NCBI GenBank assembly: GCA_965242525.1
Contig: OZ251459.1
Location: forward strand, 1,609,214 to 1,673,213
Length of the DNA: 64,000 nt
Source of the DNA: an uncultured Candidatus Binatia bacterium
GTDB taxonomy: Bacteria; Desulfobacterota; Binatia; UBA9968; JAJDTQ01
Direction of reading: 5' to 3'
Part shown: positions 2,677 through 46,147 of the stretch, piece after piece
Layout: the number at the start of each line of letters is the position of its first letter
Position numbering within the stretch: position 1 is the first letter of the stretch
Translations under genes and position numbers: made by a program
Notes under the pieces: generated by a model
What the model saw: the letters and a program-made list of their open reading frames with translations, nothing else
Told to the model about the DNA's origin: nothing
The model's database searches: none

Positions 2677-3681
2677 TCAGCGGTCCGAAGGGGGCCGCGC
2701 GCTGTCCGGGTCGGCGCTCGACCGGACCAGGGCCTCGACGCAAGAAGCGGTGTCGAGCATGGCGCACCCGAACCCGACGCTGGGTGGCGCCGGCGGCAGG
2801 GGTCCCTGCCAGTAGCGGTGCTGCGGCCAGCTTCCGTCGGAGCGTTGCCGGCCCAGGATCCGCTCCAGCGTGGCCCACAGCTCTTCGCCCTCCGGCGGGG
2901 CGCCCAGCACGTGCAGCGCGGAAAGGGCGCGGGCGGTGCGGAGGGTGTCGCCGTAGCCGCCGTCCGCGCCGCGGCGGGCGCGGATCCGGTCCGCGAGCCG
3001 GTCGCCCATGTCCCGGAACGCGGGCACGCCCCGCTGCCGGGCGCGGGCCACCGCGTCGTAGAGGTCCATGGCGTCGGGGTAGTAATGGGACGTCCCCTCG
3101 AAGTTCCCCTCGGTGACCAGGCCGGCGAGCCACGCCGCGGCCTGCGCGCCCAACTCGTTCCGGCCCTGTATGGCGAGGTAGCCCACCACGTTGGCGTTCA
3201 CCACGCTGTCCGGGACGTTGCCTTCGCCGGGCGGGGCGAGCCAGGTCCGGAACCTTCCCCTGTCGTCCCGGGCCGCGGACACGAGTCCCAAGTTCTGTCC
3301 GAACAGCACCCAGGGGTGCCACAGGATCGCCAGGGAGCAGACGCTGAGGCTGTCCAGGTCCCGCGGAAGCCGCGGCCAGTAGCGCCACGCGCCCGGATGG
3401 CTCATGGACCGGACGATGAACTCCCCGGACCGGTCCCGGACCGCCCGGGAGCGGGGGTCGTCGCAGACCTCCAGGGTGAGCGCGCCGAGAGCGGCCACGA
3501 AGGGGGGATGCTCCTCGTTGGACGGGCCTTGGAGGTCCAGGCTCGGGTAGCTCCACGAGGTCCATGCCCCGTCGCCGCGGATGGAGGCATGGAGGAAACC
3601 GAGGCCCCGGTCCACCGCGCCGCGCACCGCCTCCCGGAGGTGCGCCGGGACGGCGCCGTCGTTGTAGGATGAATGCTGCAT
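2677..3681 (-). CDS. Prenyltransferase / squalene-hopene-cyclase repeat (alpha/alpha-toroid) protein
   Basis: QW-type repeats RQRSDGSWPQH and RRGADGGYGDT are present, there are no LanC-type Cys/His motifs, and GC3 is high. The start was placed at MQHSSY because the longer ORF (to 3753) runs into the MITE cluster. Confidence 0.5.
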   Translation of the reverse strand: MQHSSYNDGAVPAHLREAVRGAVDRGLGFLHASIRGDGAWTSWSYPSLDLQGPSNEEHPPFVAALGALTLEVCDDPRSRAVRDRSGEFIVRSMSHPGAWRYWPRLPRDLDSLSVCSLAILWHPWVLFGQNLGLVSAARDDRGRFRTWLAPPGEGNVPDSVVNANVVGYLAIQGRNELGAQAAAWLAGLVTEGNFEGTSHYYPDAMDLYDAVARARQRGVPAFRDMGDRLADRIRARRGADGGYGDTLRTARALSALHVLGAPPEGEELWATLERILGRQRSDGSWPQHRYWQGPLPPAPPSVGFGCAMLDTASCVEALVRSSADPDSARPPSDR

Positions 3682-3699
3682 TGCAAGAGTTCCCTCTCC

Positions 3700-4080
3700 C
3701 TGTGGGGGCGCTTCAGGAATTCGTGTGGGTTGCGACACTTCCCATCCCGTCATCCCCGCGAAAGCCCCGTCTCGTCATTCCCGCGAAAGCGGGAATCCAT
3801 CCACTTTCCTCGCTCTTGTTGTAAAAACCTCTCATACAGGGCGCTATGGGGTTTGCTCGCAGGGTCTGGATTCCCGCCCCCGCTTCCGCGAGGACATGCT
3901 TTCGCGGGAATGACGGCGTGGGCGTCTGTGGAGCAATGACGGCGTGCCCCCTGTCGCTCCCCCTTTCCCTCTTGCCTTGCCCACACGAAAGCCGGAAGAG
4001 CCCCCTATGGGAAAGCGCGTCCTTCGACTTCGCTTCGCTCAGGACGAACGGGGTTCGTAGTTCAGGGTTTCCAAATCCGG
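3700..4080. repeat. MITE cluster containing family 2 (TIR CCGTCATTCCCGCGAAAGCGGGAATCCATC) and a partial family 1 copy (GCGTCCTTCGACTTCGCTTCGCTCAGGACGAACGG)
   Basis: Palindromic GTCATTCCCGCGAAAGC / GCTTTCGCGGGAATGAC arms are present, and the same units recur at about 11.2, 24.3, 25.1, 29.2, 42.3 and 45.9 kb. Confidence 0.8.
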
Positions 4081-4084
4081 CTTT

Positions 4085-4111
4085 ATCCAGTATAGTATAA
4101 AGGCATAATTT
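4085..4111 (+). promoter_or_regulatory. AT-rich putative promoter (CCAGTATAGTATAAAGGCATAATTT) upstream of the tandem repeat and HlyD gene
   Basis: This is a conspicuous AT island in a 70% GC background, with TATAGT/TATAAA -10-like hexamers, about 215 bp upstream of the HlyD start. Confidence 0.35.
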
Positions 4112-4238
4112 CGTCAGGCCCGTCAGGCCCGTCAGGCCCGTCAGGCCCGTCAGGCCCGTCAGGCCCGTCAGGCCCGTCAGGCCCGTCAGGCCCGTCAGGC
4201 CCGTCAGGCCCGTCAGGCCCGTCAGGCCCGTCAGGCCC
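4112..4238. repeat. Perfect 9-bp tandem repeat (CGTCAGGCC) x ~14
   Basis: The repeat is read directly from 4112 to about 4238. It translates as a (GPD)n artefact on the minus strand, and lies between the AT-rich element and the HlyD start. Confidence 0.95.
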
Positions 4239-4325
4239 GGTCTTCCGGCCGTGGTGGCGTCCCGCCCGGTCGGAACCCGGGCGCGCGCCTCCGGCGCCGG
4301 CGGGCATCCCGGAGCATTGACGCAC

Positions 4326-5228
4326 GTGTCCCTGTTCTACAACAAACTTTTCCGGGAGGAAGCCGTCGCCCGTCGGGCGAGCGGGGACCCACTGGACGAA
4401 CGGCTCCAGGTCACGGCCCGGCACGAGTGGATGGTGCTGGCGGGGCTCGGCTTGGCGCTCCTGCTGCTGCTCGTCTGGGGGGTCTTCGGAAGCGTGGAGC
4501 GCAGCCTTTCGGTCAAGGCCGTGCTGGTCCAGCCGGGCGAGCGCTACGCGGTGCTGTCACCCGTGTCCGGCAACGTGGTCGAACTCCTGGCCGAGGTCGG
4601 AGACACCCTCCAGGCCGGACAGGGCATCGCCCGGGTCCGTCTCCCGGAAGCCGAGCGCCAAGTCCGGATCACCCGGAGGATCCTGGACGCCGTCCGGGAC
4701 GGGACGGGAGGCGCCGCAACCGCCGAGATCCGGGCGGCGCTGCTCACCGCGGCGCGGGCCGAGGTCGAAGCCGTCGAGTCCCGCGCCGCGGAATCCATCG
4801 TGGCCCGGCGCGAGGGCCGGCTCGTGGCGCATCGCCTGGTCCCGGGCCAGCCGGTGCGCACCGGCGAGACCGTGGCCCAGGTCCGGGGCAGTTCCGATGA
4901 GCCGTGGCAGGCGCTGGCCTTCGTGTCGGCGCGGGACGCCGGGAAACTCGAAGCGGGCATGGAGGCGGAGGTGCGGGTGGCGCTGCCCGGGCGGCCGGGG
5001 ACCAGCCGGTTGGAAGCCCGGGTCCTGGAGGTGTCGCCCCGGACCGTGGCCGCCCCGCAATGGCTTGCGGACCTGGGCCTTGCCGCGCCCGCGCCGGCGC
5101 ACCTGCTGCGGCTGGTCCTGAGCGACCGGCCGCGCCTGCCGCTCGCCGACGGCGCCGGCGGACACGTGCGGATCGTGCTGGGGAACCGGTCCCCTGCGGC
5201 CCTGCTGCTGGCCAACACCGACCTCTGA
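4326..5228 (+). CDS. HlyD-family secretion adaptor of an NHLM/NHLP-type bacteriocin export system
   Basis: GTG start followed by [51 protein letters not shown] (N-terminal TM) and then a coiled-coil/beta-barrel-like region. The gene immediately precedes the C39-ABC gene. Confidence 0.75.
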
Positions 5229-5268: not shown

Positions 5269-7482
5269 TTGAACGCGACGCCGAAGCGAGGGCGCGCTGC
5301 GCCGGAGCGGCGCCGGGCGCGCACGCCCCTGATGCTGCAACTCACCGAGACCGAGTGCGGGGCGGTGTGCCTCGGCATCGTGCTTGCGCACTTCGGGCGC
5401 TGGGTATCCGTCGAGGAGTTGCGGGAAACCTGCTCGGTGGGCCGGGACGGGTGCTCCGCGGCCGACATCTTCCGCGCGGCGCAGCGGTACGGCCTGGAGG
5501 CCCAGGGATGGCGCAGGCAGCCGAAGCACCTCCGCGGCATGCCGTTGCCCATGATCATCTTCTGGGAGTTCAACCATTTCGTGGTGCTGGAAGGCTTCCG
5601 CGGGGACCGGTTCCTGATCAACGACCCGGGCAGCGGCCACCGGACGGTCAGCGCGGAAGAGTTCGACCGGGCGTTCACGGGCGTGACGCTGACGCTCCGA
5701 CCGAAGCCCGAGTTCCGTCCGGGCGGCGTCCGCCCCGGTCTCCTGCACCGGATCCTGCCGTGGCTGCGCGACGTGAAGGAGCCGCTCGCGTTCGCCATGT
5801 GCTGCGGGCTGCTGCTGACCCTGCCCTCCCTCGCCATGCCGTTCCTGGTGGGCCTGTTCGTGGACTTCGTGCTGTCCGGGCGCGAACCGTCCTGGAGCGC
5901 GGCGCTGACCGGGAGCCTCGTGGGGGCCGCGGCCCTGCTCTACCTCCTGACTTGGCTCCGGGAACGCTGCCTCCGGCTGCTCTCCGTGCGCCTCGCCATC
6001 GACCACGGCGCGCGCTTCATGGAGCGGCTGTTCCGGCTTCCCATGGGGTTCTTCACCCACCGGCTGTCCGGCGACCTGACCTCCCGGATACAGCTCCTCG
6101 ACACGGTCTCGAACGTGGCCGCGCACCACCTGGCCGGCATCTCCATCGAGATCGTCACCAGCATGGCGTTCCTTGGGCTCATGCTGGCGTACGACCCGCT
6201 GCTCTGCGCCGTGGTGGTGGGACTGGGCGCGCTCAGCGCGGTGGCCATGCGCGTCCTGGCCCGGGTCCGGGTGGACGAGAACCGCAGGCTCAGGCGCGAG
6301 CAGGGCATGCTGTACGGCATCGGCATGTTCGGGGCCGGCAAGATCGACGCCTTGCAGGCGTCCGCCGCGGAGGACGACTTCTTCTCCCGCTGGACGGGAT
6401 ACCAGGCGCGGGAACTGGCCGCCCGGCAACGGTTCACCGAGCTCGGCCACCTCAACGCGGCCCTGCCCCTGCTGTTCCTGATCGCGGGCAACGCCGCGGT
6501 GCTGGGCATCGGCGGCTGGCGGGTGATGGCGGGCGACCTGACGGTGGGCATGCTGACGGCCTTCTACATGGCGGCGGTGAACTTCCTGCAGCCCATAGGA
6601 CGGTTCATCCAGTTCGCCGACATGTTCCAGATGCTGGAGGCGGACCTGCAGCGCCTCGACGACGTGTTCGACGCGTCCGAGGACCGCACCTTCCATCCGG
6701 CGGCGCCCTCTCCCCAGGGGGAGGAGGGGGAAGTCTCGACGTTGGCCGGGCGGCTGCGTCTGAAAGGCCGGGTCGAGCTGCGCAACGTCACCTTCGGCTA
6801 CCAGAAGAACCGCGAACCCCTGATCGAGGACTTCAACCTGACCATCGAGCCGGGCCAGCGCGTGGCCGTGGTCGGCCCCAGCGGCTCCGGCAAGTCCACG
6901 CTCTCGGCGCTGGTGGCCGGCCTCCAGCAACCGTGGTCCGGGGAGATCCTCATCGACAGGCACCCGCGCAGCGCCATCCCGCGGGAGGTGCTGACCAGTT
7001 CCGTGTCCCTCGTGGACCAGCACATCTTCCTGTTCGGGGGCACCGTGCGCGAGAACCTGACCATGTGGATCCCCGAGGTGCCGGACCAGATCCTGGTGGC
7101 GGCCGCCCAGGACGCGGCCATCCACGCGGAGATCATCTCCCGGCCCCTGGGGTACGACGCGCCGGTGGACGAGGGAGGACGCAACTTCAGCGGCGGCCAG
7201 CGGCAGCGGCTGGAGATCGCCCGGGCCCTGGTCAACAACCCGTCGGTCCTGATCCTGGACGAGGCCACCTGCTCCCTCGACACCATCACCGAGGTGCGCA
7301 TCGACGACGCCCTGCGGCGCCGGGGATGCACCTGCCTCATCGTGGCCCATCGGCTGAGCACCATCCGTGACTGCGACCTGATCGTGGTCCTCGACCAAGG
7401 GCGCGAGGTGCAGCGCGGCGCCCACGAGGAGTTGATGCGGGACACGGACGGACTGTACCGCCAACTCGTGGAGTCGTCTTGA
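5269..7482 (+). CDS. Peptidase C39 domain / permease / ATPase ABC exporter (NHLM bacteriocin system)
   Basis: The N-terminus LQLTETECGAVCLGIVLAHFGRW carries the C39 catalytic Cys, followed by 6 TM segments and an NBD with GPSGSGKST, FSGGQRQRLEIARAL and ILDEAT. An alternative start is MLQL at about 5332. Confidence 0.9.
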   Translation: MNATPKRGRAAPERRRARTPLMLQLTETECGAVCLGIVLAHFGRWVSVEELRETCSVGRDGCSAADIFRAAQRYGLEAQGWRRQPKHLRGMPLPMIIFWEFNHFVVLEGFRGDRFLINDPGSGHRTVSAEEFDRAFTGVTLTLRPKPEFRPGGVRPGLLHRILPWLRDVKEPLAFAMCCGLLLTLPSLAMPFLVGLFVDFVLSGREPSWSAALTGSLVGAAALLYLLTWLRERCLRLLSVRLAIDHGARFMERLFRLPMGFFTHRLSGDLTSRIQLLDTVSNVAAHHLAGISIEIVTSMAFLGLMLAYDPLLCAVVVGLGALSAVAMRVLARVRVDENRRLRREQGMLYGIGMFGAGKIDALQASAAEDDFFSRWTGYQARELAARQRFTELGHLNAALPLLFLIAGNAAVLGIGGWRVMAGDLTVGMLTAFYMAAVNFLQPIGRFIQFADMFQMLEADLQRLDDVFDASEDRTFHPAAPSPQGEEGEVSTLAGRLRLKGRVELRNVTFGYQKNREPLIEDFNLTIEPGQRVAVVGPSGSGKSTLSALVAGLQQPWSGEILIDRHPRSAIPREVLTSSVSLVDQHIFLFGGTVRENLTMWIPEVPDQILVAAAQDAAIHAEIISRPLGYDAPVDEGGRNFSGGQRQRLEIARALVNNPSVLILDEATCSLDTITEVRIDDALRRRGCTCLIVAHRLSTIRDCDLIVVLDQGREVQRGAHEELMRDTDGLYRQLVESS

Positions 7483-10418
7483 ACGGGAAGCACCGAACCG
7501 GGGACGTGCGGAAGCCGGCGCCGGGCAGCCTCCGGGAAATCGCCCTCGCGCACGGCGAGCCGTTCATCGGAGGCGGCAACCGCCCCATCCGCCTGTCCGA
7601 CCCCGAGACCCTGTGGTACGTGGTCAAGGGCACCATGGACGTATTCACCGCCCAACATTCCGCGGACAGGGAGACGTCGGACTTCAAGCATCTCCTGCGC
7701 GCGGGCGCCGGCCGGTGGATCTTCAGCATCGCCAACGAGGAGGACGCCTCCACGTCCCTGTACATCGCCAAGGGGCTCCCCGACACCGAGCTCCGCTGCG
7801 TCCCCCGGACCGCCCTGACCGGACCCGGGACGGCCGGACTCCTGGCCGAACAGGCGGACGCCTGGATTGCCGACCTCGCCGCGGCCATCGCCCGGGAAGT
7901 GGAGCCGCGCCCGCGCCCCCAGCGCTTCCTGACCCCGGGCGAGGACGTCGAGGCCGCGGCCGAGAACGTGCTGTCCACCCGCCGCGGCGTGGTCTGGGTC
8001 TCGACCCAGGTGGGGAACGCGGCTTTCCTCGACACCGGCGAGCCTACCGGCAGCGGTCCGGGCTTCATCCCCGTCTCCGCGGGTAGCTGGATACGGCTGT
8101 TCCACCCCTGCCGACTGGCCGTCACCACGTCCGCGGCCCTCGAAGCCGACGGCCTGCTGTTCTCCGCCCTGGCCGAGTTCCATCGACTGGCGCTGTCCGC
8201 GGAGGAAATCAACCGGCGCCTGGTGCTCGTGGACATGGCCAACTTGCAGCGGGCCCACGTCCAGCGCCGGAGCCGGAGCGAAGAGCGCGCCCGGGACAGC
8301 CTGCTCGGCGTGCTGAACGAGCGGCGGTCCCCCGCGGGGGACCGCGGGACCGGCCTGTTGCGCGCCCTGGAGCAGGTGGGCCGCCACGAAGGCATCCGGT
8401 TCCGCACTCCGCCCCGCCGGCGGGGAACGGACGAGGACGCCCCCGACCTGACGGAGATCCAGCGCGTGTCGGGGGTCCGCGCGCGCAGGGTCAAGCTCGC
8501 CGTCGAAGACCATTGGTGGCGCGGCGACAGCGGCGCGATGCTGGCGTTCCGGCGCGAGTCCGGGAACCCGGTGGCGCTGGTCCCGGGCGTGTGGGGCCGT
8601 TACCAGATGATCGACCCGGAGACGGGCCGTTCGGAGCGGGTGGACGAGGGCCTGGCCCGGGACCTCGCTTCCGAGGCGTACTTCTTCTACCGCCCGCTGC
8701 CGCAGGAGGAAACGGTCCGTCCCGGCGCCCTGTTCCGCTTCGCGTTCCGCGGGCTCGGAAAAGACCTGGCGCGCTTCATCCTGGCGGGACTGCTGGTGGG
8801 CCTCATGATGCTGACGCCGCCCATCCTGCTCGGCGCCCTGGTGGACCGCGTGATCCCCAGCGGGTCCGGCTGGCAAGTCCTGGAGCTGTCCCTGTCCCTG
8901 GTCCTGCTGGCGGTCCTCACCGCGCTCCTGCATCTCCTCCAGGGAACCGCCCTGATGCGGCTGGAGGCCGCAGCCGCGGCCCGGGTGGGCGCGGCGCTCT
9001 GGGACCGGCTGCTCGGCCTGCCGCAGCGGTTCTTTCGTCGCTTCTCCTCCGGCGACCTGACCATGCGCACCATGGCCTTCCAGGGACTGCGCGACCAGGT
9101 CTCGGGGGTGGTCGGCAACGCCCTCCTGTCGGTGGTCTTCCTCCTGCCCACCTTCCTGCTGCTGTTCGTCTATGACACCGGGATCGGCTGGCTCGGCCTG
9201 GGGCTGGGACTGTCCTCCCTGGGGGTGACCGCGGCCATCGGCGTCCTCCAGCTACCCCACCAACGGCGCCTGCTCGCCATCTCGAGACGGCTTGCGGGCA
9301 GGCTGGTGCAACTGCTGAACGGCGTCAGCAAGCTGCGGTCCACCGGCTCCGAAGGCATCGGGTTCGCCTTGTGGGCGCAGGACTACCGGGAACAGAAGCA
9401 GACCGAGATGCGGCTCGGCAGGCTGAACGAGCACCTGATCGCCTTCCTGGCGGCCGCGCCCCTGCTGGCCGCGGCCGCGGTGTTCGCCGCGGCCATGCAC
9501 GACGGCCGCGCGGTCCTTCCGGTCGGGGACTTCCTCACCATCTACGCAGCGTTCATGGTGTTCTATTCCGCGGTGGCCAGGCTCGGCGCTTCGTTCTCCG
9601 CGGTGGCCGCGGTCATGCCCGCGTACGAGCAGGTGACCCCGATCCTGGAGTCGAAGCCGGAGACGGGCGCCAAGGGCGAGCCGCCGCCGGAGCTCAGCGG
9701 CGAACTCCACGTGGACCACGTGAACTTCCGCTACACGGAGGACGGTCCCCTGGTCCTGCAGGACGTCTCCATCCACGCACGGGCCGGCGAGTTCGTGGCC
9801 ATCGTGGGGGAATCCGGCGCGGGCAAGAGCACCCTGTTCCGGCTCGCCCTCGGACTCGAGGCGCCGCTGTCGGGGGCCGTTTACTACGACGGGCGCGACC
9901 TCGCGCGACTCAACAAGCGGGCGGTGCGCAGCAGGATCAGCATGGTGGTGCAGGACGTGTCGCTGCACCCCGGCACCGTGCTGGAGAACATCGTCGGAGT
10001 GTCCGGGAACCTCACCGAGGACGACGCCTGGCGGGCCGCCCGCCAGGCCAGCGTGGACGAAGACATCGCCGCCATGCCCATGCAGATGCACACCCCGACC
10101 GGAGACAAGTCCGCGACTTTCTCGGGCGGGCAGATCCAGCGGATCATGCTGGCCGCGGCGCTGGTCCGGGACCCGAGCGTCCTGTTCCTCGACGAGGCCA
10201 CCAACTGGCTCGACAACAAGAGCCAGGCGCAAGTGATGCACAACGTGGCCGAGCTTGCCGTCACCCGGTTCGTGACGGCCCACCGCCTGTCCACCATCCG
10301 CATGGCCAACCGCATCTACGTGCTGCAGGACGGCCGGGTGGTCCAGACCGGAACCTTCGACGAGCTGTTCGAGATCGACGGCCCCTTCCGCAACCTGGTG
10401 CGGCGGCAAATGGCCTGA
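7479..10418 (+). CDS. Second large ABC transporter of the NHLM tripartite system, with an N-terminal non-transporter domain
   Basis: The protein is 979 aa, and the start overlaps the upstream stop (ATGA). The N-terminal ~400 aa are not TMD-like, followed by a TMD (LLVGLMMLTPPILLGALV) and an NBD with GESGAGKST, FSGGQIQRIML and LFLDEAT. Confidence 0.85.
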   Translation: MNGKHRTGDVRKPAPGSLREIALAHGEPFIGGGNRPIRLSDPETLWYVVKGTMDVFTAQHSADRETSDFKHLLRAGAGRWIFSIANEEDASTSLYIAKGLPDTELRCVPRTALTGPGTAGLLAEQADAWIADLAAAIAREVEPRPRPQRFLTPGEDVEAAAENVLSTRRGVVWVSTQVGNAAFLDTGEPTGSGPGFIPVSAGSWIRLFHPCRLAVTTSAALEADGLLFSALAEFHRLALSAEEINRRLVLVDMANLQRAHVQRRSRSEERARDSLLGVLNERRSPAGDRGTGLLRALEQVGRHEGIRFRTPPRRRGTDEDAPDLTEIQRVSGVRARRVKLAVEDHWWRGDSGAMLAFRRESGNPVALVPGVWGRYQMIDPETGRSERVDEGLARDLASEAYFFYRPLPQEETVRPGALFRFAFRGLGKDLARFILAGLLVGLMMLTPPILLGALVDRVIPSGSGWQVLELSLSLVLLAVLTALLHLLQGTALMRLEAAAAARVGAALWDRLLGLPQRFFRRFSSGDLTMRTMAFQGLRDQVSGVVGNALLSVVFLLPTFLLLFVYDTGIGWLGLGLGLSSLGVTAAIGVLQLPHQRRLLAISRRLAGRLVQLLNGVSKLRSTGSEGIGFALWAQDYREQKQTEMRLGRLNEHLIAFLAAAPLLAAAAVFAAAMHDGRAVLPVGDFLTIYAAFMVFYSAVARLGASFSAVAAVMPAYEQVTPILESKPETGAKGEPPPELSGELHVDHVNFRYTEDGPLVLQDVSIHARAGEFVAIVGESGAGKSTLFRLALGLEAPLSGAVYYDGRDLARLNKRAVRSRISMVVQDVSLHPGTVLENIVGVSGNLTEDDAWRAARQASVDEDIAAMPMQMHTPTGDKSATFSGGQIQRIMLAAALVRDPSVLFLDEATNWLDNKSQAQVMHNVAELAVTRFVTAHRLSTIRMANRIYVLQDGRVVQTGTFDELFEIDGPFRNLVRRQMA

Positions 10419-10436
10419 CCGTCGTTCGGGCAGGCC

Positions 10437-10486
10437 GTCGTTCCCGCAGGCGCCCGCCTCCGTCGTTCCCGCAAGCACGCGCCCGC
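10437..10486. repeat. Three degenerate direct repeats CCGTCGTTC(G/C)CG(G/C)CA(G/A)G (MITE-TIR remnants)
   Basis: Read directly; the repeats resemble the family-2 TIR CCGTCATTCCCGC and lie between the convergent ABC gene and precursor A. Confidence 0.6.
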
Positions 10487-10499
10487 GGAAGCGCCGGGA

Positions 10500-10787
10500 T
10501 TACCAATCGTCGACGATGCTCCGCCCGCTCGGGTTTGGCTGCCATCCGTACACGCCGCCAGCGACCGCCTGCAGGTCGCCGTCGCCCAGCCGGCTGTCGG
10601 GGGGCAGGACCAGATGCGCAGCCTCGCCGCTCTCTTCGTGGACCTCGATGGACAGGGACGCCGGAATGGTGACGCCCAATTCCTGCTCCACCGCCCCCTT
10701 CGGGTCGCTGAGAAGCCGGGCGCGGAACTCCGCGTCCTCCATCGCCTTGCCCACGATCTTCGCCTGCATTTCCTTCGCCGTTTCCAT
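10500..10787 (-). CDS. NHLP (nitrile hydratase leader peptide) family RiPP precursor A
   Basis: Full sequence METAKEMQAKIVGKAMEDAEFRARLLSDPKGAVEQELGVTIPASLSIEVHEESGEAAHLVLPPDSRLGDGDLQAVAGG|VYGWQPNPSGRSIVDDW. It carries a classic NHLP leader, a double-Gly C39 cleavage site, a 17-aa core and a GGAGG SD. Confidence 0.9.
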   Translation of the reverse strand: METAKEMQAKIVGKAMEDAEFRARLLSDPKGAVEQELGVTIPASLSIEVHEESGEAAHLVLPPDSRLGDGDLQAVAGGVYGWQPNPSGRSIVDDW

Positions 10788-11149: not shown

Positions 11150-11625
11150 ACAATGTCATACCTCCCTTGGGAATGCGCGTCCTTCGACTTCGCTACGCTA
11201 CGCTCAGGACGAACGGAATGGTTGTTCAGGGTTTCCTTGAAAACCTCTGAACAATCGAAACATCCGGGATGGATTCCCGATTCCCTCACCCTGACGCCCC
11301 TGTCCCCGTTCGTCCTGAGCGTAGCGAAGCGAAAACCTCCGTTCGTCCTGAGCGTAGCGTAGCGAAGTCGAAGGACGCGCTCATGCCCCCTGTCTGTCCC
11401 GATTGTTCAGAGGTTCCCTCGGTCATTCCCGCGAAAGCATGTCCTCGCGGAAGCGGGGGCGGGAATCTCGTCGTACAAGCCTCGATGGATGGATTCCCGC
11501 TTTCGCGGGAATGACGGAGGTGCGTGCCCGCGAACGGGGTGCGTGCCCGCGAACGGGGTGCGTGCCTGCAGGAATGACGGAGGTGGCCGCCGCGGGAACG
11601 ACGGGGTGTGCTTTTGGGCGTTTCG
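11150..11625. repeat. MITE cluster (families 1 and 2)
   Basis: Contains GCGTCCTTCGACTTCGCTACGCTACGCTCAGGACGAACGG, GAACAATCGAAACATCCGGGATGGATTCCC, GTCATTCCCGCGAAAGCATGTCCTCGCGGAAGCGGGGGCGGGAATC and a GATGGATTCCCGCTTTCGCGGGAATGACGG arm. Confidence 0.85.
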
Positions 11626-11627
11626 GG

Positions 11628-12749
11628 CTAGTCCCGGGCGAGGGAACAGATCAGGCCGGCGTATGCCTTGGCGGCGACCCCGGCGTCCGTGACCGTGAGC
11701 TTGACGTGGTTGACCCCCTTGTAAACGAGGAACACGCCCCGACGGTCGTACATCCTGTCGAGCGCGCACCACTGGAGCAGCCCCTGCGCCTTCGCCGCCA
11801 GGCACCAGCCGCGGAGCGCCAGCCGCTCCACCACCGGCCGCCAGGCGCTCCGCCCCGTGGTCAGCCAACTGTCCATGGCGTCGTCGCCCCACGACCCCGC
11901 ATGGTACAGTTCCAGGCCGATCCTGGGCAGCAGCCCCGAGTCGGCCACGTCCACCGACAGCCGGAAGCGGGGCAACACGTCCCCGAGGTCGGCCAGCAAC
12001 TCCGTGGCAGGGCGAACCGCAGCGCTCCGGCCCAACCGCTCCAGCACCCCGGCAACCTCGTCGCGCCCGATCTCCTGAACCACCAGCCGCACCGCCCGCG
12101 GCGTCCGGCTCGGCAACGCTCCGACATGGGCGACCCTGGCGTCCGGCGGCAGCGCCGCCAGCGCCCGCGCCACCCACCGCAGCGCCTCGTCCTCATCGGT
12201 CCAGCCCACCGCGCCGGCCAGCGCCGCGATCGGCAAGGGCTGCGGACGGTCATGGGGCCCGGATTCCTCCGTGCGCCGTATCTTCAAGAAGACCCCCGGA
12301 TCCGGGCGCGGGTCGGCCGGCGCCTCGGCCAGGTCGTATTCGAGCATGGTTCCGGCGATGCAAGCGTGCAACTCGGAGTCGGCCTGCCCGATCCGGGCGA
12401 GGTACCGGGACAGCGCCGCCGCCGCCGAGCCCGGACGGGCGGCTTCGCCCCTGCGGATGAAGTGCCGCGCGAGCGGGCTCCCCGACCTCACCACCACGAA
12501 CAGGTCCGCCGCCGGCGTCTCCTCGCCGAGCCGGAACTCGCAACCGAGGAACGCCGACGACCCGGCGTCCGGCAGCTCCGCGGCGCAGGCCGTCAACCGG
12601 TCCCATCCGAGGCCGTCGAGCAAGGAACGCGGTATCAGCGGGCGGAGCCCCGCGAGCACCGCCTCCGGCGCGCGGCGCGCATCGTGGGTCGATGCAGCAA
12701 ACGCGGGCTCGGCAGCCTCAACCAAGGGAAACGGGCTCGACGCCACCAT
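11628..12749 (-). CDS. Hypothetical protein (373 aa) nested between NHLP precursors; candidate RiPP maturation/immunity protein
   Basis: The ORF is long with strong GC3 bias, starts 37 bp downstream of precursor B on the same strand with a GGAGG SD, and has no recognisable motifs. The competing frames are Gly/Arg-rich. Confidence 0.5.
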   Translation of the reverse strand: MVASSPFPLVEAAEPAFAASTHDARRAPEAVLAGLRPLIPRSLLDGLGWDRLTACAAELPDAGSSAFLGCEFRLGEETPAADLFVVVRSGSPLARHFIRRGEAARPGSAAAALSRYLARIGQADSELHACIAGTMLEYDLAEAPADPRPDPGVFLKIRRTEESGPHDRPQPLPIAALAGAVGWTDEDEALRWVARALAALPPDARVAHVGALPSRTPRAVRLVVQEIGRDEVAGVLERLGRSAAVRPATELLADLGDVLPRFRLSVDVADSGLLPRIGLELYHAGSWGDDAMDSWLTTGRSAWRPVVERLALRGWCLAAKAQGLLQWCALDRMYDRRGVFLVYKGVNHVKLTVTDAGVAAKAYAGLICSLARD

Positions 12750-13510: not shown

Positions 13511-13810
13511 CTACCAGTCGGCCACGACATTCCAACTGTCATCCACACGCACACCGTTTTCGTCGTACACCGCGGCGGCGCCGGCGACGGTCTCCATCTC
13601 GCTTTCGCTCAGCCTGCCGTCGGGGGGCAGGACCAGATGCGCAGCCTCGGCGCCCTCTTCGTGGACCTCGATGGACAGGGACGCCGGAATGGTGACGCCC
13701 AATTCCTGCTCCACCGCCCCCTTCGGGTCGCTGAGCAGCCGGGCGCGGAAGTCCGCGTCCTCCATGGCCTTGTCCACGATCCTCGCCTGCATTTCCTTTG
13801 CCGTTTCCAT
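13511..13810 (-). CDS. NHLP family RiPP precursor D (VAGA cleavage-site variant)
   Basis: Full sequence METAKEMQARIVDKAMEDADFRARLLSDPKGAVEQELGVTIPASLSIEVHEEGAEAAHLVLPPDGRLSESEMETVAGA|AAVYDENGVRVDDSWNVVADW. The leader is about 85% identical to precursor A. Confidence 0.85.
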   Translation of the reverse strand: METAKEMQARIVDKAMEDADFRARLLSDPKGAVEQELGVTIPASLSIEVHEEGAEAAHLVLPPDGRLSESEMETVAGAAAVYDENGVRVDDSWNVVADW

Positions 13811-13846
13811 GCCTCGTCCCTCCTCCATAGAGTGCCGAACACGTGC

Positions 13847-15872: not shown

Positions 15873-16631
15873 TCAGGAGCGGAGGCGCGCCCGGCTTCCG
15901 CGCGCGCCGTACTTGGCCACGAGGGGGAACAGGTCGTAAACGATCCTGGCCTGGGGGCAGTGGCGCCGCACCTCCGGTTCGTAGGCGCTGTTCATGTCCA
16001 TGGCCACCGCCTCGATGGCCTTGCAGCCGTCGGCGCCCAGGCTCTCGAAGAACGGCCGCACGTCTTCGCGGCTGCGCCCCTTGCCCACCCACAACACGCG
16101 CCGGGTCACCGCATCGGTAATCACCGTGGCCAGCTTCTGCACGGTTTGCAGCGCGAACTCGTCCATCACCAGCCGGGTCACCCCGCGCAAGTCCATGGGC
16201 CCCACCGCGCGCTGCAGGTACCCCCTGTCCAAGTCCCTCACCGCGTCCCACCCCAGCCGGTAGTGCTGCGCCACCTGCTTGATGGTCATCACCGTGCACA
16301 AATGCGCCACGTTGTCGGCCAGCCGTTGCGTCACCCGCGCATAGCGGGCCAGCCAGCTCAACCGTTCCAGCTTGGGACCGCACCGCGGACACGCCAGCCG
16401 CCGACGCCGCAGCACCAGGGTCGTGGGCGCGTCGAAGATGGGCAGGTCGCGCACCCGACGCCGCTCGTACCCGTGGACGGCCGCCACTTCCCGGCCGCAG
16501 CCGACGCAGACCCCGGGCCGTCCCGCCACCGGGTCGAGGTCGATCTCGACCATGCCGCGGTTGCGCCTGGCCGCCACCGCTTCGTAGCCTTCCCAGTCTC
16601 CGAGAACTTCGTCGATTCCGATCTTCGCCAA
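15873..16631 (-). mobile_element. ISL3-family transposase gene, 3'-truncated (pseudogene/remnant)
   Basis: A zf-ISL3 region (CVGCG...RDLPIF...RRRRLACPRCG) is followed by a DDE_Tnp_ISL3 start (LVMDEFAL...AVAMDMNSAYEPEVRRHCPQARIVYDLF). The coding region stops after about 250 aa against an expected ~420, and no TIRs were identified. Confidence 0.75.
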
Positions 16632-16718: not shown

Positions 16719-19700
16719 TCAACCCGCGGACGGCAGCGGGAGCGAGCCGCCTTCCGCGGGGGGCGGCGCCGCGTCCCCGGCGGGAGGGGCCGCGGCCACT
16801 TTCTCCGTCAGTCCGAGGTCGTCGAGGATGGCGTACAGCGCCGGCACCAGGAACAGGATCTGGAAGGTGGACGCGGCGAGGCCGAAGGCGAGGCTCGCCA
16901 CCAGGGGCACGAGGACCTGGGCCTGGAGGCTCGTCTCCATGAGCAGGGGCAGCACCCCCGCCACCGTGGTGAGCGAAGTGAGCAGGATCGCGCGAAAGCG
17001 CTGCCGGGCCGCCCGGCGCGCGCCCTGGGCCGCGGACTCCCCGCGGCGCCGGTGGAGCTTGATGAACGCCACCAGCACGATGGCGTTGTTGACCACCACC
17101 CCGGCCAGGGAGACGAACCCCACGACGCTGGGCATGGAAAGCTCCAGGCCCATGGCAAGGTGGCCCGCCACCACCCCCACCAGGCCCACGGGGATGGAAG
17201 CCATCACCACCAGGGGCTCCACGTAGCTGCGGAACTGGAAGCTCAGCAACAGGTAGATGGCGGCGAGACCCACCAGGAAGTTCCGCGCCAGCGAGGCCCC
17301 GAGGGTGGACCCCTCCCTGGCCGAGCCGCCGAACTCCACGGTGACCTCCGGGTACCGGGCCGCCAACTCGGGCAGCAGCCGGGCTTGGGTGTCGGCGACC
17401 ACCTCGCTGGCGTTGGCCACCTGCGGGTCCAGGTTGCCCTCCACCCGCACCGCCCGGCGCCCGTCGATGCGGCGGATGCGCGCATAGCCGCGGCCCGGCT
17501 CCAGGACCGCCACCGCGTGGAGGGGCGCCTGCCCGCCGTCCGGGAGGGTGATCGTGAACTGGGTCAGGTCGGCCAGGCTGTCCCGGTCCGGTCCGGTGAG
17601 GCGGACGTTGACCTCGTAGTCTTCCGGACCCACCTGCATGGTTCCCGCGTTGCGGCCGTGGAAGGCCGCCCGCAGTTGCCGCGCCACCGTGGCCGCGTCG
17701 AGCCCCAGGGCCAGCGCGCCCTCGCGCAGGCGCAGACGCATCTCCGGCTTGCCCGGACGCAGGTCGTCGGTCAGGTCGAACACGCCGCGGTAGTTGCCGA
17801 GCCACTGGCGGATCTCGGTGGACGCGGCCTTGAGCTTTTCCAGCTCGCCGCCCGCCAAGCGGACGCTGATGGCCTTTCCGCCGGGGCCCACCTGGTCCTG
17901 GGTGAAGTTCAGCGAGACCACGTCCGGGAGGTCCCCCACCTCCGTCCGCCACCGGCCCACTACGTCGTCCAGCAACACGCGGCGGGCCTCGGAGTCGATC
18001 AGGTCCACGACCACGGTGGCCACATGGGCGCCGGACTCGCCGGCGTCCGGGTTCCGGTTGAACTGGACCACGACGTTCCGCACCAGCCTCCGGCCGTCGG
18101 CCCGGCCCGCGGACAACTCATCATCTACTTTCCGGACCGCCTCCACCACATGCCCGACCACCGCCTCGGTGCGCGCCAGGGGCGTCCCCGGGGGCAACAG
18201 CAACCGGGCCTCCATCGTGTTGCCCTCGAGGGTGGGGAAGACCCGGAACTTGAGCATGCCCGCGGCCAGCGTGGACGCGGCCACGAAGAACAGGGCCGCG
18301 ATGACCGCGCACGCGAGGTAGCGCGACTGGACCGCGGCATCCACGCACCGCCCCACGCATGCTTCGGTGAAACGCCCCAGGCCCGCGTCGAACCGCGCCC
18401 GGAGTCCCCGGGCCGCCGAACCCTCGCGGGCGCGCAGGGTCCCCATCAGGTGGTGGGGAAGGATCAGGAACGCCTCCACCAGGCTCAACGACAAGGTGAG
18501 GATCAGGATCACCGGCAGCACCGCCAGTATGGTCCCGAGGTTCCCCCGGAGGAACGCGAGCGCTCCGAACACCGCGAGGGTGGTGAGGTACGAGGCGAGC
18601 ACCCCCGGGGCCACCTCCCGGGCGCCTTCCACCGCGGCCTCCAGGGGAGGGCGTCCCGCGGCGTGGTGGCGCGCGATGTTCTCCGAGATCACGATGGCGT
18701 CGTCCATCATCAGGCCCACCGCGATCATCAGGCCCACCATGGTGACCATGTCGAAGGAGTAGCCGGTCATGGCCATGGCCGCGATGGTCCCCATGAAGGC
18801 CACCGGCAGCCCCGCGGCCACCCAGAACGAGTAGCGCAGGCCGAAGAACAGCCACATGACCAGGAGCACGAGGCCCAGCCCCTGGACTCCGTTGCGCAGC
18901 AGCATGGTCAGGCGGTCCCGCACCACCGAGGCCACGTCGCGGGTGACGTCCAGGACCACGCCCGGGGGCGCCCGCTGGCGCTCCTCCTCGACCCATGCGG
19001 TGATGGCGTCGAAGACCTCCAGCAGGTCGTCGCCCTTCCCCTTCTCCACCCCCAGGAAGGCGGTGCGCTGGCCGTTGAAGAAGTCCTTGGCCTCGTCCTT
19101 CTCGAAGCGGTCGGTGACGACCGCGATGTCGCCGAGCCGGACCGCGGCGCCGCTCTCCGACGCCACCACCACCAGGTCTTCGAACTCCCGGGAGTCCCGG
19201 CGTTCGTCGTCGAACCGGACCAGCACCGTGGCGTCCCGGGTCTCCACCGCGCCCGCGGGCAGTTTCAGGCTCTGGGACGCCACCGCGTTGGCCAGGTCCC
19301 GGACGCCGAGCCCGAACTGGCGCAGGGTGGACGCCGGCGCCTCGATGCGGATCTGGCGTTGGGAAAAGCCCTCCACGCTCACCCGGGCGACTCCGGGAAC
19401 GCCCAGCAGGCCGCGTTTCATGCGCTCCGCATAGGCCTTCAGGCTCCGGGGATCCATGGGGCCCGCCACCGCGATGGCCGCCACCAAGTCCGAAGGCTGG
19501 CGCAGGCGCACCAGCGGGGTCTCCACGTCGTCGGGAAAGTCGTCGATGGCGGCCACCTGGGTCTTCACGTCGTCGAGGAAGCGGTCGAGGTCGCCGCCGT
19601 CGCGCATCTTCAGGACCGCGGAAGCCAGGCTCTCACGGGCCTCGCAGTCGGTTTCGTCCAGGTCGTCGATGCTGCTGACCGCTTCCTCCACACGCTGGCA

Positions 19701-19883
19701 CAGGGCCTCTTCCACCTCCTGGGCCGCTGCGCCCGGGAAGGGGATGCTGACTTGCACCGAGTTCGGGGGGATCTCCGGAAACGTCTGGCGCTTCACCGCA
19801 GGCGCGAACACGAACCCCACCGCCAGAAAGGCGAGCATCAGCAGGTTGGCGGCCGTGGGATGGCCGGCGAAGAAACGGATCAT
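16719..19883 (-). CDS. RND efflux transporter permease (AcrB/CzcA family)
   Basis: The protein is about 1054 aa from MIRFFAGHPTAANLLMLAFLAVGF, with 12-TM topology, two large periplasmic loops, and the conserved MDDAIVISENIARH region. Confidence 0.9.
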   Translation of the reverse strand: MIRFFAGHPTAANLLMLAFLAVGFVFAPAVKRQTFPEIPPNSVQVSIPFPGAAAQEVEEALCQRVEEAVSSIDDLDETDCEARESLASAVLKMRDGGDLDRFLDDVKTQVAAIDDFPDDVETPLVRLRQPSDLVAAIAVAGPMDPRSLKAYAERMKRGLLGVPGVARVSVEGFSQRQIRIEAPASTLRQFGLGVRDLANAVASQSLKLPAGAVETRDATVLVRFDDERRDSREFEDLVVVASESGAAVRLGDIAVVTDRFEKDEAKDFFNGQRTAFLGVEKGKGDDLLEVFDAITAWVEEERQRAPPGVVLDVTRDVASVVRDRLTMLLRNGVQGLGLVLLVMWLFFGLRYSFWVAAGLPVAFMGTIAAMAMTGYSFDMVTMVGLMIAVGLMMDDAIVISENIARHHAAGRPPLEAAVEGAREVAPGVLASYLTTLAVFGALAFLRGNLGTILAVLPVILILTLSLSLVEAFLILPHHLMGTLRAREGSAARGLRARFDAGLGRFTEACVGRCVDAAVQSRYLACAVIAALFFVAASTLAAGMLKFRVFPTLEGNTMEARLLLPPGTPLARTEAVVGHVVEAVRKVDDELSAGRADGRRLVRNVVVQFNRNPDAGESGAHVATVVVDLIDSEARRVLLDDVVGRWRTEVGDLPDVVSLNFTQDQVGPGGKAISVRLAGGELEKLKAASTEIRQWLGNYRGVFDLTDDLRPGKPEMRLRLREGALALGLDAATVARQLRAAFHGRNAGTMQVGPEDYEVNVRLTGPDRDSLADLTQFTITLPDGGQAPLHAVAVLEPGRGYARIRRIDGRRAVRVEGNLDPQVANASEVVADTQARLLPELAARYPEVTVEFGGSAREGSTLGASLARNFLVGLAAIYLLLSFQFRSYVEPLVVMASIPVGLVGVVAGHLAMGLELSMPSVVGFVSLAGVVVNNAIVLVAFIKLHRRRGESAAQGARRAARQRFRAILLTSLTTVAGVLPLLMETSLQAQVLVPLVASLAFGLAASTFQILFLVPALYAILDDLGLTEKVAAAPPAGDAAPPPAEGGSLPLPSAG

Positions 19884-19890
19884 CGGAGGT

Positions 19891-21252
19891 TCACCGGACC
19901 GGGGTCGCCCCCACCGCCTCGGCCACGAGGCTCTCCGCGGCGTCCCGGTCCACCACCGGACGCACCCGCATGCCCTCCACCGCGAACGGCAGGTCCGAGA
20001 CCACCACGCGTTCCCCGGGCGCAACCCCCGACCGGACCACCACGAAATTGCTCTGGGCGAACTGCGTCTCCACCTCGCGCCCGTTCAGGCGGTCGTCGGG
20101 GCCGGCCACGTAAACCCGTTTGCCGTCCAGGGCGGCGCGCGGGACCACCACCGCCCTGGGCCGGGGCGGCCCCCGCAGCTCCACTTCCACGTACATGTTC
20201 TTGACCAGGGGCGGTCTCCCGCCCGACTCCGCCTGCCGGTAGGGATGGTCCACCGCCACGATGACCCCGACCGTGCGGGTGCGCGGGTCCACCGTGTCGC
20301 TCATCCGAAGGAAGCGGGCGGGCCACTCCACCGCCACGTCTCCGGTGCGCAGACGCACCACCGCCTCGACGTCCGTGACGCCGCGCAGCCGCGGCATGGC
20401 CGCGCCCGGTCCCGCGGGAGTCCCGACCTCCGGGGGCAGCAGCGTCAGCATCTTGTCCATGGGCGCCTGGGCGATGACTTCGGCCGCGTCGAGGCCGTCC
20501 GCCTCCACCAGGACCTGGCCCCTGGCGGCGAACTGGGAGAGCTCCACGTGGACCGCGGCGATCCGGCAGGTGAAGGGAGCGACGATGCTGGTGCGGGCCA
20601 AGTCCCGCCGCGCCGTCTCCAACTGGGCCTTGAGCCGGTCCCGCGCGGCTTCCTGCACCGAGCGCTCCGCGGGGAGCAGCCTCATGGCGTTGCGCAGGTT
20701 CTGCAGCGCCTGCTCACCGGCGAGCACCGAACGCTCTTCCTGCTCCACCTCCGACTGGGAGATGGCGCCCCGGCGCAGCAGCTCCCGCTTGCGCTCCAGT
20801 TGCTTGCGGCCCAGGTCCAGGCGCCGCTCTTCGATGGCCAGGGACCCTTCCGTGTTGCGCGCCCTCACGTCCAGCACCCGGACCTGGGCCTCCACCGAGC
20901 GGATGTTGGCCTCGATCTGGGCCACCGACAGGCGGTAGTCGGCCGGGTCGATGCGCAACAGCTCCGTCCCTTTCCGGAGGATGGCGCCTTTCCGGAGCTC
21001 CGGGTGCCGATACACGACGGCGCCGCCCACCTGCCCCACCGCCTCCCAGACCCTGCCGGGCTTGACGTTGCCGTAGCCCAGGACCCGGGGCACCACGTCC
21101 ACCGCGGGCGCCTCCACCACGCGCACCGGAGTGACCCGTTCTTCCAGCGGGACGCGCTTGGGGGCCTCCCGCGGCTTCATCAGGATCAGGGCCGCCAACC
21201 CGCCCAGGGTGACGAGCAGCAGGACGAGGATCTTCCTTGCGTGTCGGAGCAT
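19891..21252 (-). CDS. RND efflux periplasmic adaptor (membrane fusion protein)
   Basis: N-terminal TM anchor (KILVLLLVTLGGLAALILM), a coiled-coil (LERKRELLRRGAISQSEVEQEER), and a beta-barrel domain; located directly upstream of the RND pump. Confidence 0.85.
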   Translation of the reverse strand: MLRHARKILVLLLVTLGGLAALILMKPREAPKRVPLEERVTPVRVVEAPAVDVVPRVLGYGNVKPGRVWEAVGQVGGAVVYRHPELRKGAILRKGTELLRIDPADYRLSVAQIEANIRSVEAQVRVLDVRARNTEGSLAIEERRLDLGRKQLERKRELLRRGAISQSEVEQEERSVLAGEQALQNLRNAMRLLPAERSVQEAARDRLKAQLETARRDLARTSIVAPFTCRIAAVHVELSQFAARGQVLVEADGLDAAEVIAQAPMDKMLTLLPPEVGTPAGPGAAMPRLRGVTDVEAVVRLRTGDVAVEWPARFLRMSDTVDPRTRTVGVIVAVDHPYRQAESGGRPPLVKNMYVEVELRGPPRPRAVVVPRAALDGKRVYVAGPDDRLNGREVETQFAQSNFVVVRSGVAPGERVVVSDLPFAVEGMRVRPVVDRDAAESLVAEAVGATPVR

Positions 21253-29039: not shown

Positions 29040-29660
29040 CGCTTCGCTACGCTCAGGACGAACGGGGATAAGGGGTCGGGGTGAGGGAATCCATCCTGGA
29101 TGTCTCGGTTGTTCAGAGGTTCCATAAATCGGCTCTTCCGGCTTTCGTGTGGGTAAGGTAGAAGGGAAAGGGGAGCGAAAAGGATCACACGGTCATTGCT
29201 CCGCGGACGCCCACTCCCGTCATTCCCGCGCACACCCACTTCCGTCATTCCCGCGAAAGCATGTCCTCGCGGAAGCGGGGGCGGGAATCCATCCGGTTTC
29301 GTCGCTCTCGTTGTACAAACCTCTCCAGGTCGGATTACCCTTCTCGATCCACTCGATCTTCCTTGCCCTATTCCATTTCCTGACCGCCTTTCTCTCCGGG
29401 TAGCGTTTTCCGTGGGTTCAGGGACCTCGTATCCAACCAACCGGTGCACAGATGGATGGATTCCCGCTTTCGCGGGAATGACGGAGATGAGGCTTTCGCG
29501 GGAATGACGGCATGGGCTTTCACAGGAGGAACATCTGAACAATCGAGACATCCGGGATGGATTCCTTCACACTGACCCCTATATCCGTTCGTCCTGAGCG
29601 TAGCGAAGCGAAGTCGAAGGACGCGCTCATGCCTCCTGTCCCGATTTTTCAGAGGTTCCA
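29040..29660. repeat. MITE cluster (family 1 at ~29040-29140 and ~29530-29660; family 2 at ~29226-29520)
   Basis: Read directly. Confidence 0.85.
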
Positions 29661-42239: not shown

Positions 42240-42545
42240 CATCCTGCGGCCGGACCCAAGCGCGGACGCCCGCACCGTCATTCCCGCGAAAGCATGTCCT
42301 CGCGGAAGCGGGGGCGGGAATCCATTTTCATCGACCTTCTCAATCCTCTTATACGGGGCGCCACGGGGTTTGCTCGCAAGGATGGAAACACAGGGGGTTT
42401 TCATAGGAGTCTATGGATTCCCGCTTTCGCGGGAATGACGAGAGTGGGGCCTTTGCGGGAATGACGGCGTGGGCTTTCGCGGGGATGAGGAAAGTGGGGC
42501 CTTGCGGGGATGTTGGGGCGGGCGTTCGCGGGTATTCGGATGGTG
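42240..42545. repeat. MITE family 2 copy (~42266-42445) followed by about four degenerate ~24-bp tandem units (GTGGGGCCTTTGCGGGAATGACG-like)
   Basis: Read directly. Confidence 0.75.
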
Positions 42546-45819: not shown

Positions 45820-46147
45820 CATGGGAAAGCGCGTCCTTCGACTTCGCTTCGCTACGCTCAGGACGAACGGGCCGTTCGTATCGCTGCGCTCAGGACGAAT
45901 GGGGGGCTTTGCTTCGCGATCCGATTCCCTCCCCCTTGAGGGGGAAGGTCAGGGAGGAGGGGCTCGCACCGACGGACTCGGGGAACCTCTGAACAATCGA
46001 GACATCCGGGATGGATTCCCTCACCCTGAGACCTATATCCGTTCGTCCTGAGCGTAGCGAAGCGAAGTCCCCCGTTCATCCTGAGCGTAGCGAAGCGAAG
46101 TCGAAGGACGCACTCATGCCCCCTGTCCCGATTTTTCAGAGGTTCCT
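45820..46147. repeat. MITE family 1 copies (two units) inserted between coxM-like and coxL-like genes
   Basis: The insertion runs from GGGAAAGCGCGTCCTTCGACTTCGCTTCGCTACGCTCAGGACGAACGG, through GGGAACCTCTGAACAATCGAGACATCCGGGATGGATTCCC, to CCGATTTTTCAGAGGTTCC. Confidence 0.85.

Follow-up and report, generated by a model that had tools for sequence, protein, structure and literature searches.

Short tandem repeats ahead of genes are a classic route by which host-adapted pathogens diversify expression without a regulator; to our knowledge, few have been described from uncultured environmental or symbiotic bacteria, or upstream of genes for natural-product export. Generic variable-number tandem repeat (VNTR) loci with intergenic units of 6–9 bp, of the kind used in multilocus VNTR analysis (MLVA; for example, the 9-nt SSTR9 of Francisella tularensis), slip fast and often have no known function. 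Here we analyzed a perfect array of the 9-mer CGTCAGGCC in a 64,000-nt stretch, hereafter the window, of an uncultured Candidatus Binatia bacterium (GenBank assembly GCA_965242525.1, contig OZ251459.1, positions 1,609,214 to 1,673,213 of the forward strand). It resembles VNTR/MLVA loci in its perfect 9-bp units, its more than ten copies and its change between near-identical strains. Those loci are typing markers in cultured pathogens, whereas the array lies in uncultured bacteria ahead of an exporter of peptides that are ribosomally synthesized and then modified post-translationally (RiPPs), a HlyD/ABC/ABC operon with two ATP-binding cassette (ABC) transporters. We read it as a slippage-driven VNTR in non-coding DNA, most likely within the transcribed 5′ leader of an NHLP-type export operon, and give this reading a probability of about 0.8.

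Several described systems invite comparison. The 7-bp repeats of Haemophilus influenzae hmw1A and hmw2A vary from 9 to 28 copies between isolates and show an inverse stepwise relation in which more repeats give less mRNA, a graded and not an on/off effect (PMC2424069). Like them, the locus studied here combines a perfect short-unit array upstream of a start codon with a secretion-related operon and wide copy-number variation. The hmw1A/hmw2A repeats are 7-bp and AT-rich, they belong to a host-adapted pathogen with many contingency loci, and their effect was shown by experiment; the array is 9-bp and GC-rich, comes from an uncultured high-GC host and is known here from sequence alone. In Moraxella catarrhalis, the AGAT(n) repeat in the 5′ untranslated region (UTR) of uspA2 occurs in a strain-dependent 6–23 copies and gives non-binary, length-dependent expression with an optimum at intermediate length, about 18 copies (PMC4679880; PMC7302503). 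Both repeats vary in copy number and lie, in the case of the array probably, in a transcribed leader, but the uspA2 unit is a tetranucleotide whose leader location was mapped by experiment, while the leader location of the array is deduced from a conserved −10 box. Another upstream simple sequence repeat (SSR) of the same species, GTTC(n), changes mRNA by only 1.2–1.4-fold (PMC7302503). Marine Beggiatoaceae carry intergenic arrays of the heptamer TAACTGA in the 5′ regions of genes, with a proposed regulatory role (PMC4679880). These are also tandem short direct repeats 5′ of genes in environmental, non-pathogenic bacteria. Their unit recurs in 169 sets genome-wide (PMC4679880), which suggests a dedicated recognition system; CGTCAGGCC, in contrast, forms one array in 64 kb. 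The precedents cut both ways: a repeat ahead of a gene can tune its expression or have hardly any influence on it.

The array and its alleles in related genomes

The element under study is the following.

4112..4239, no strand assigned: perfect tandem array (CGTCAGGCC) × 14.2 (Tandem Repeats Finder)

Tandem Repeats Finder reported a period of 9, 14.2 copies, 100% matches, no indels and a score of 256 with the consensus CGTCAGGCC, and a direct read-out of the sequence agreed. The perfect 9-mer array described in a first-pass annotation made from the sequence alone is thus real as a sequence feature, although its length is 128 bp and not the 127 bp given there; the span assigned to it, 4085..4326, also takes in an AT-rich island on the left and a GC-rich 86-nt flank on the right. 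An 18-mer probe of two units had 13 matches against 0.34 expected, a count that 0 of 100 dinucleotide-preserving shuffles reached. When the window was scanned for perfect arrays (period 2–30, at least 3 copies, at least 24 nt), 4112..4239 alone passed. A three-unit probe of metagenome and viral collections returned 63 and 1 contigs, respectively, none of them the exporter locus; the longest run was 5 copies, and the flanks of these 3–5-copy runs were unrelated to the locus. Literature searches with the repeat sequence and the sample accessions gave no match, and Rfam 15 gave none at gathering thresholds over the whole window, its sole match being a sub-threshold plant miRNA on the repeat itself (28.5 bits vs 90). 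Nothing in these searches points to a recognition system, mobile or dedicated, behind the repeat.

We then compared copy number across relatives recovered by a HlyD protein search of ENA and Logan assemblies, whose contigs are syntenic wherever they extend. Both flanks were aligned for nine syntenic loci including the window. The alleles are listed below, each with the identity of its HlyD protein to that of the window (299 aa compared); the last entry is a more distant tblastn match.

Window: 14 copies
L073, 97.0%: at least 7 copies, then a 100-N scaffold gap
L074, 95.3%: 1 copy, with a unique junction and a right flank shorter by 8 nt
L005, 92.0%: 3 copies plus a degenerate unit, GAACAGGCC
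L075, 92.0%: a gap, then about 7 copies (lower bound)
L076, 92.0%: 6 copies, a gap, then about 7 copies (lower bound)
L006, 88.0%: 3 copies
L007/L008, 82.6%: 0 copies
L009, 78.3%: one degenerate unit, CGTCAGGTC
L001, 69% (tblastn): no repeat and a very short leader

The matches listed in a scan of genome collections were all distant (69% identity or less), and none of them had the repeat; among these, the nearest match to a species representative was an uncultured alphaproteobacterial metagenome-assembled genome at 69% HlyD identity. The strain comparison proposed at the first pass therefore yields 14 copies, at least 7 at three loci, 3, 3, 1, 1 degenerate and 0, all between conserved flanks. 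The loci closest to the window fall into two sublineages. Nucleotide identity of the HlyD genes is about 94% between the two, 96.7–97.2% within window/L073/L074 and 98.3–98.7% within L005/L075/L076. Since each sublineage contains both short and long alleles, expansion and contraction have been recurrent. The units are perfect in all alleles, as expected if turnover by slippage is fast relative to point mutation, and this agrees with the earlier suggestion of recent or ongoing expansion. The locus thus has both marks of a bacterial VNTR, namely head-to-tail short units of high identity (14.2 copies, 100%, no indels) and a copy number that differs among close genomes with conserved flanks (nine syntenic loci), and we have very little doubt that it is a real hypervariable VNTR.

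Tandem repeats are error-prone in assembly, and three independent short-read scaffolds of relatives are gapped exactly at the array, by 100-N gaps at 1389..1488 in L073, 1272..1351 in L075 and 1254..1352 in L076, so that the array, or its length, might have come from mis-assembly. We give this next to no chance. In six independent assemblies the unit recurs unchanged at this very site, and at least 6–7 perfect copies stand beside the gaps, and the part that depends on assembly is the exact count of 14 alone; the artefact that the first-pass annotation had allowed for is not what the independent assemblies show. The gaps fit a long array and a heterogeneous array alike. The array is a systematic assembly breakpoint for this lineage.

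How the array may have arisen is suggested by the distant relative L009: because its leader holds a single CGTCAGGYC, the array probably grew from a resident motif. One such motif in the ancestral leader would first have been duplicated; slipped-strand mispairing would then have lengthened and shortened the run of copies. Hairpin- and quadruplex-type structures favour such mispairing in tandem repeats. Each unit carries the palindrome GGCC, and single strands of the array can therefore pair with themselves. As single-stranded DNA, the minus strand is predicted to form a long quasi-hairpin (−47.1 kcal/mol, z −7.5) and the plus strand 4-bp hairpins in a row (−27.3 kcal/mol, z −3.1). The export operon has the minus strand as its template, and this strand also matches a G-quadruplex motif at 4119..4238 (G3N6 repeated; at least four runs of three or more G, 1–7 nt apart on one strand), the longest such match in the window and a candidate quadruplex that would compete with the hairpin. 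Structures of this kind would be expected to favour slippage at 4112..4239.

Placement of the array ahead of the exporter genes

The array lies in a divergent intergenic region of 644 bp (3682..4325), together with a promoter-like site; the export operon begins at its right edge.

4068..4096, plus strand: promoter-like site with −35-like TTTCCA (4068..4073), a 17-nt spacer and −10-like TATAGT (4091..4096), from a consensus scan and conservation
4240..4325, plus strand: GC-rich non-coding right flank of the leader with a Shine-Dalgarno (SD)-like GGAG at 4311..4314, from an alignment showing 1-nt indels
4326..5228, plus strand: HlyD-family periplasmic adaptor, first gene of the operon (Pfam HlyD_3, 9.4e-12; GC content at third codon positions, GC3, 0.89–0.90)

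The array begins 15 nt downstream of the −10-like TATAGT and ends 86 nt upstream of the HlyD start codon, GTG 4326, which we adopted because aligned 300-aa orthologues begin there (P0001, P0003 and P0004, starting MSLFYNK at an aligned TTG or GTG). The island at 4080..4111, with 9 of 32 bases G or C by direct count, is the sole AT-rich patch of the intergenic region; in 100-nt windows, GC falls to 0.53–0.55 at the island against 0.7–0.8 around it. A scan for sigma-70-like consensus sites returned 2 in 3400..4600 against 0.1 expected. The −10 box keeps its position in every relative examined, as GTATAGT in L005, L006, L073–L076 and L009, as part of TTGATA-N17-TACAAT in L007 and as TATACT in L001. 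Given this consensus match and its conservation, 4068..4096 is a putative working promoter. Just upstream of the −10 box, TTATCCAGT at 4083..4091 resembles the DnaA-box 9-mer TTATCCACA at 7 of 9 positions, a likeness that is probably coincidental.

Transcription from this site would start about 7 nt past the −10 box, near 4103, placing the array 8–9 nt into the transcript, and the array probably does sit in a transcribed leader. It occupies the interval between the conserved −10 box and the SD-like sequence, outside the −35/−10 spacer and outside any open reading frame (ORF). The first-pass annotation, which correctly set the array between an AT-rich promoter-like island and the exporter operon, had expected slippage to change either promoter-to-start spacing or the structure of the leader. 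Length changes can alter only leader length and structure; copy number cannot alter −35/−10 spacing because the array is downstream of the −10 box. With the array in neither the spacer nor an ORF, the leader would be the only option for an effect of length. Each slippage step would insert or delete 9 nt of a self-contained module that pairs with itself, in the stretch from the transcription start to the ribosome-binding site, and would leave the reading frame and the −35/−10 spacing unchanged.

We also considered that the array might be protein-coding, either as a collagen-like (Gly-Pro-Asp)n protein on the minus strand or as a (Val-Arg-Pro)n extension of HlyD. The 9-bp unit is a multiple of 3, and the HlyD frame runs open through the array as (Val-Arg-Pro)n with no stop between 4101 and 4326; it contains no ATG, GTG or TTG from the TAA at 4098..4100 to the array, and so has no start codon with which to include it. 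The minus strand reads (Gly-Pro-Asp)n within a 113-aa ORF (4083..4424) with a weak match to Pfam Collagen (PF01391; 23.4 bits, E 4.9e-5), which lies under the gathering cut-off of 27.2; this ORF also falls short in GC3 (0.69, where real genes reach about 0.9), overlaps the HlyD start and is broken in relatives, so we do not count it as a collagen-like protein. The right flank, from the array to the start codon, carries 1-nt indels between lineages that disrupt every frame, and is non-coding for that reason. Relatives with 0–1 copies keep normal 300-aa HlyD genes. The array is non-coding, as first proposed; the indels in the flank, the absent start codon and the poor codon-position GC all agree, and a coding array, already largely refuted, is extremely unlikely. 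An upstream leaderless ORF starting from an ATG in L005, the sole upstream ATG frame there, was rejected, being out of frame with HlyD and absent from the window.

Database calls of HlyD seem at odds with this, since some reach up to GTG 4251, 11 nt past the array (P0122, identical to the window product, P0125 and P0121; 325 aa each). These calls are probably over-extensions into the GC-rich leader.

The units could instead act as DNA sites, either as an array bound by a regulator or through the first unit serving as the −35 box (CTGACG) of a leftward promoter for the divergent 334-aa gene. The intergenic region is a divergent one, and a minus-strand match, CTGACG-N17-TATACT at 4117..4089, does use the first unit in this way. 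Only that unit is usable as a −35 box, and copy number would then be irrelevant because the first unit alone could serve; moreover, L009 does not keep the spacing and L007 lacks the unit, yet both have the divergent gene. As for a regulator, the 9-bp period is out of helix phase, which disfavours cooperative binding, and no regulator gene is linked. We regard a role as DNA sites as very unlikely.

A number of points weigh against our reading of the array as a slippage-driven VNTR in a transcribed leader, or limit it. Its placement in the 5′ UTR is deduced from the consensus promoter match and its conservation. The copy numbers of L073, L075 and L076 are lower bounds because the scaffolds break within the array, the short alleles come from short-read or k-mer assemblies, and the exact count of 14 depends on one assembly. 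The variation recorded here is that between assemblies. The short alleles span 27–31 bp, below the k-mers at which assemblers collapse repeats, and where the array is long the same pipeline leaves gaps bordered by 55–63 bp of repeat; the junction of L074 is, in addition, unique. On these grounds we take the short alleles to be genuine and the long counts to be minima. Finally, two sublineages that differ by about 6% in nucleotides have both retained long arrays, and this persistence could hint at selection for length, which pure neutrality does not predict.

Copy number and expression of the exporter

We next used folding models to ask what array length would do to the leader. The RNA leader (243 nt) is predicted to fold at −125.4 kcal/mol (z −4.2), with the array pairing mostly with itself. 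Across modelled leaders with 0–25 units, the energy needed to open the segment from the SD-like sequence to the start codon is 12.9–13.2 kcal/mol at 0, 1, 2 and all even copy numbers and 1.6–4 kcal/mol higher at copy numbers 3, 5, 7 and 25; over this range, modelled accessibility of the ribosome site does not change monotonically with copy number. The rise at these odd copy numbers is a parity artefact of a few kcal/mol and arises in the models because a leftover unit pairs with UUGACG beside the start. Masking of the start region by CGUCAG:UUGACG pairing was rejected as a conserved mechanism, as the complementarity occurs in the sublineage of the window alone and not in that of L005/L075/L076, where long arrays are also found. 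The consensus fold of the right flank contains a predicted hairpin between the SD region and the first codons; compensatory pairs number 2 of 33 and the covariation term is positive (unfavourable), and we rejected a conserved leader RNA structure there, with too few sequences and almost no covariation.

These results bear on the proposal that the array is a contingency or "rheostat" locus, in which changes in copy number heritably and reversibly tune the amount of the HlyD/ABC/ABC proteins. Expression would fall as the array lengthens, for example because hairpins or G-quadruplexes on the template strand form roadblocks or because the structured leader becomes longer, and subpopulations would differ in RiPP export. 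The hypervariable copy number right in the interval from the conserved −10 box to the start codon, the retention of long arrays in two sublineages and the strong self-pairing and G-quadruplex motif of the template strand are all in its favour, as are the precedents of hmw1A/hmw2A (PMC2424069) and uspA2 AGAT(n) (PMC4679880; PMC7302503). Against this, neither promoter spacing nor reading frame can be changed by the array, predicted accessibility of the SD and start is non-monotonic with copy number, and the complementarity of the unit to UUGACG is missing from a lineage with long arrays. The GTTC(n) repeat moves mRNA just 1.2–1.4-fold even in a phase-variable species (PMC7302503), and one such array per 64 kb gives no sign of a genome-wide contingency strategy. 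On balance we find a rheostat of this kind unlikely, and a contingency or rheostat locus maintained by selection rather improbable; the contingency switch raised at the first pass is a possibility, not a finding.

For the slippage-driven VNTR that we favour, a measurable effect of copy number on expression is conceivable, at somewhat under even odds, and neutrality is about as likely. Our best estimate is that any effect would be graded and modest, not on/off. Because modelled ribosome access is flat, an effect of length is more likely on transcription or mRNA stability; it would act through transcription of a structured, quadruplex-prone template or through the stability of the message, and not through ribosome access. 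That the array is a selected, heritable "volume control" for RiPP or bacteriocin export, working by a template hairpin or G-quadruplex roadblock or by leader-mRNA stability, seems to us improbable. Were it so, no contingency-type repeat in control of a peptide-toxin exporter would have been known before it, and lineages or subpopulations with 0–3 units would export different amounts of NHLP-derived peptides from those with 7–14 or more. The natural allele series (0, 1, 3, at least 7 and 14 units between conserved flanks) makes the relation between length and RiPP export directly testable. If the array does not tune export, it is still a strain-level marker, and a recurrent cause of scaffold breaks and mis-called HlyD starts in metagenome assemblies of this lineage.

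Export operon, neighbouring genes and other repeats

Genes were mapped by codon-position GC (GC3 about 0.9 in real genes of the window) together with family searches. Besides HlyD, the features around the array are as follows.

5269..7482, plus strand: ABC transporter of the NHLP bacteriocin export family, with a C39 peptidase domain at its N terminus (TIGR03796)
7479..10418, plus strand: second NHLP export ABC transporter, permease/ATPase without a peptidase domain (TIGR03797)
10500..10787, minus strand: RiPP precursor of the NHLP leader-peptide family (TIGR03793)
13511..13828, minus strand: small NHase_alpha-like ORF
2677..3681, minus strand: divergent conserved gene of 334 aa that shares the intergenic region with the array (codon-position GC, GC3 0.89)

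Pfam and TIGR family searches corroborate the HlyD/exporter operon context assigned at the first pass. Both transporters score above the family cut-offs (TIGR03796, 894.7 bits vs 853.3; TIGR03797, 748.2 bits vs 709.4), and the first also matches Peptidase_C39 (2.8e-33), ABC_membrane and ABC_tran. The precursor scores 73.2 bits against 50.9 for TIGR03793 and thus places an NHLP precursor in the neighbourhood; its product is the likely cargo of the exporter. For the HlyD adaptor, the NHLP secretion protein family TIGR03794 is the best family match at 86 bits, below the 156.2-bit cut-off; the model has 421 positions, and the protein falls about 120 aa short of it. In its gene order, HlyD-ABC1-ABC2, the operon agrees with the cassette that Haft et al. 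(2010) linked to NHLP/Nif11 RiPP precursors (PMC2887384). The two NHLP/NHase_alpha-like precursor ORFs, at 10500..10787 and 13511..13828, both on the minus strand, flank a 373-aa ORF (11628..12749, minus strand) for which family searches gave no match. Imperfect tandem repeats of 16–25 bp lie near the precursor ORFs at 10419..10483 and 11514..11608.

The divergent 334-aa gene has syntenic counterparts of 332–337 aa in L006, L007, L009 and L073–L076. Its protein had no match in Pfam, NCBIfam or PDB apart from a faint hint of SQHop_cyclase_C (E 0.21). It keeps its place next to the exporter throughout the close relatives and so may form part of the RiPP system. Further left are two ABC-importer genes on the minus strand.

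Three further kinds of repeat or insertion occur near the promoter island. The window carries an insertion of about 305 bp at 3707..4011 that the close relatives L073, L076 and L006 lack. This insertion lies between the near-identical direct repeats CCCTGTGGG and CCCTATGGG, has 36-nt terminal inverted repeats (3694..3729 and 3980..4015, 78%) and holds internal inverted copies of GTCATTCCCGCGAAAGC, so that it looks like an element of the miniature inverted-repeat transposable element (MITE) type. It has pushed the divergent gene away from the common promoter island by about 300 bp. Dispersed copies of a palindromic element, GTCATTCCCGCGAAAGC / GCTTTCGCGGGAATGAC, resembling repetitive extragenic palindromes (REP-like), lie at 3741..3790, 29192..29255, 29466..29521 and 42423..42532, where Tandem Repeats Finder reports them as tandem matches of 25–26 bp and 49–50 bp. 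A second dispersed element, CTTCGACTTCGCTTCGCT(ACGCT)CAGGACGAACGG, is found beside the island at 4020..4055 and again at about 24579, 27343..27444, 29597, 45836, 46039..46106, 51592 and 58642; the same program sees it as matches of the 5-mer AGCGA/CTTCG and of a 33-mer. Its copy number next to the promoter island varies between relatives, with two in tandem in L006, L075 and L076, and contig L005 terminates within it. Farther to the right, a 252-aa ORF of an ISL3-family transposase (15873..16631, minus strand), probably truncated, adjoins genes for an AcrB-type resistance-nodulation-division (RND) pump and a HlyD-like adaptor (16719..21252, minus strand).

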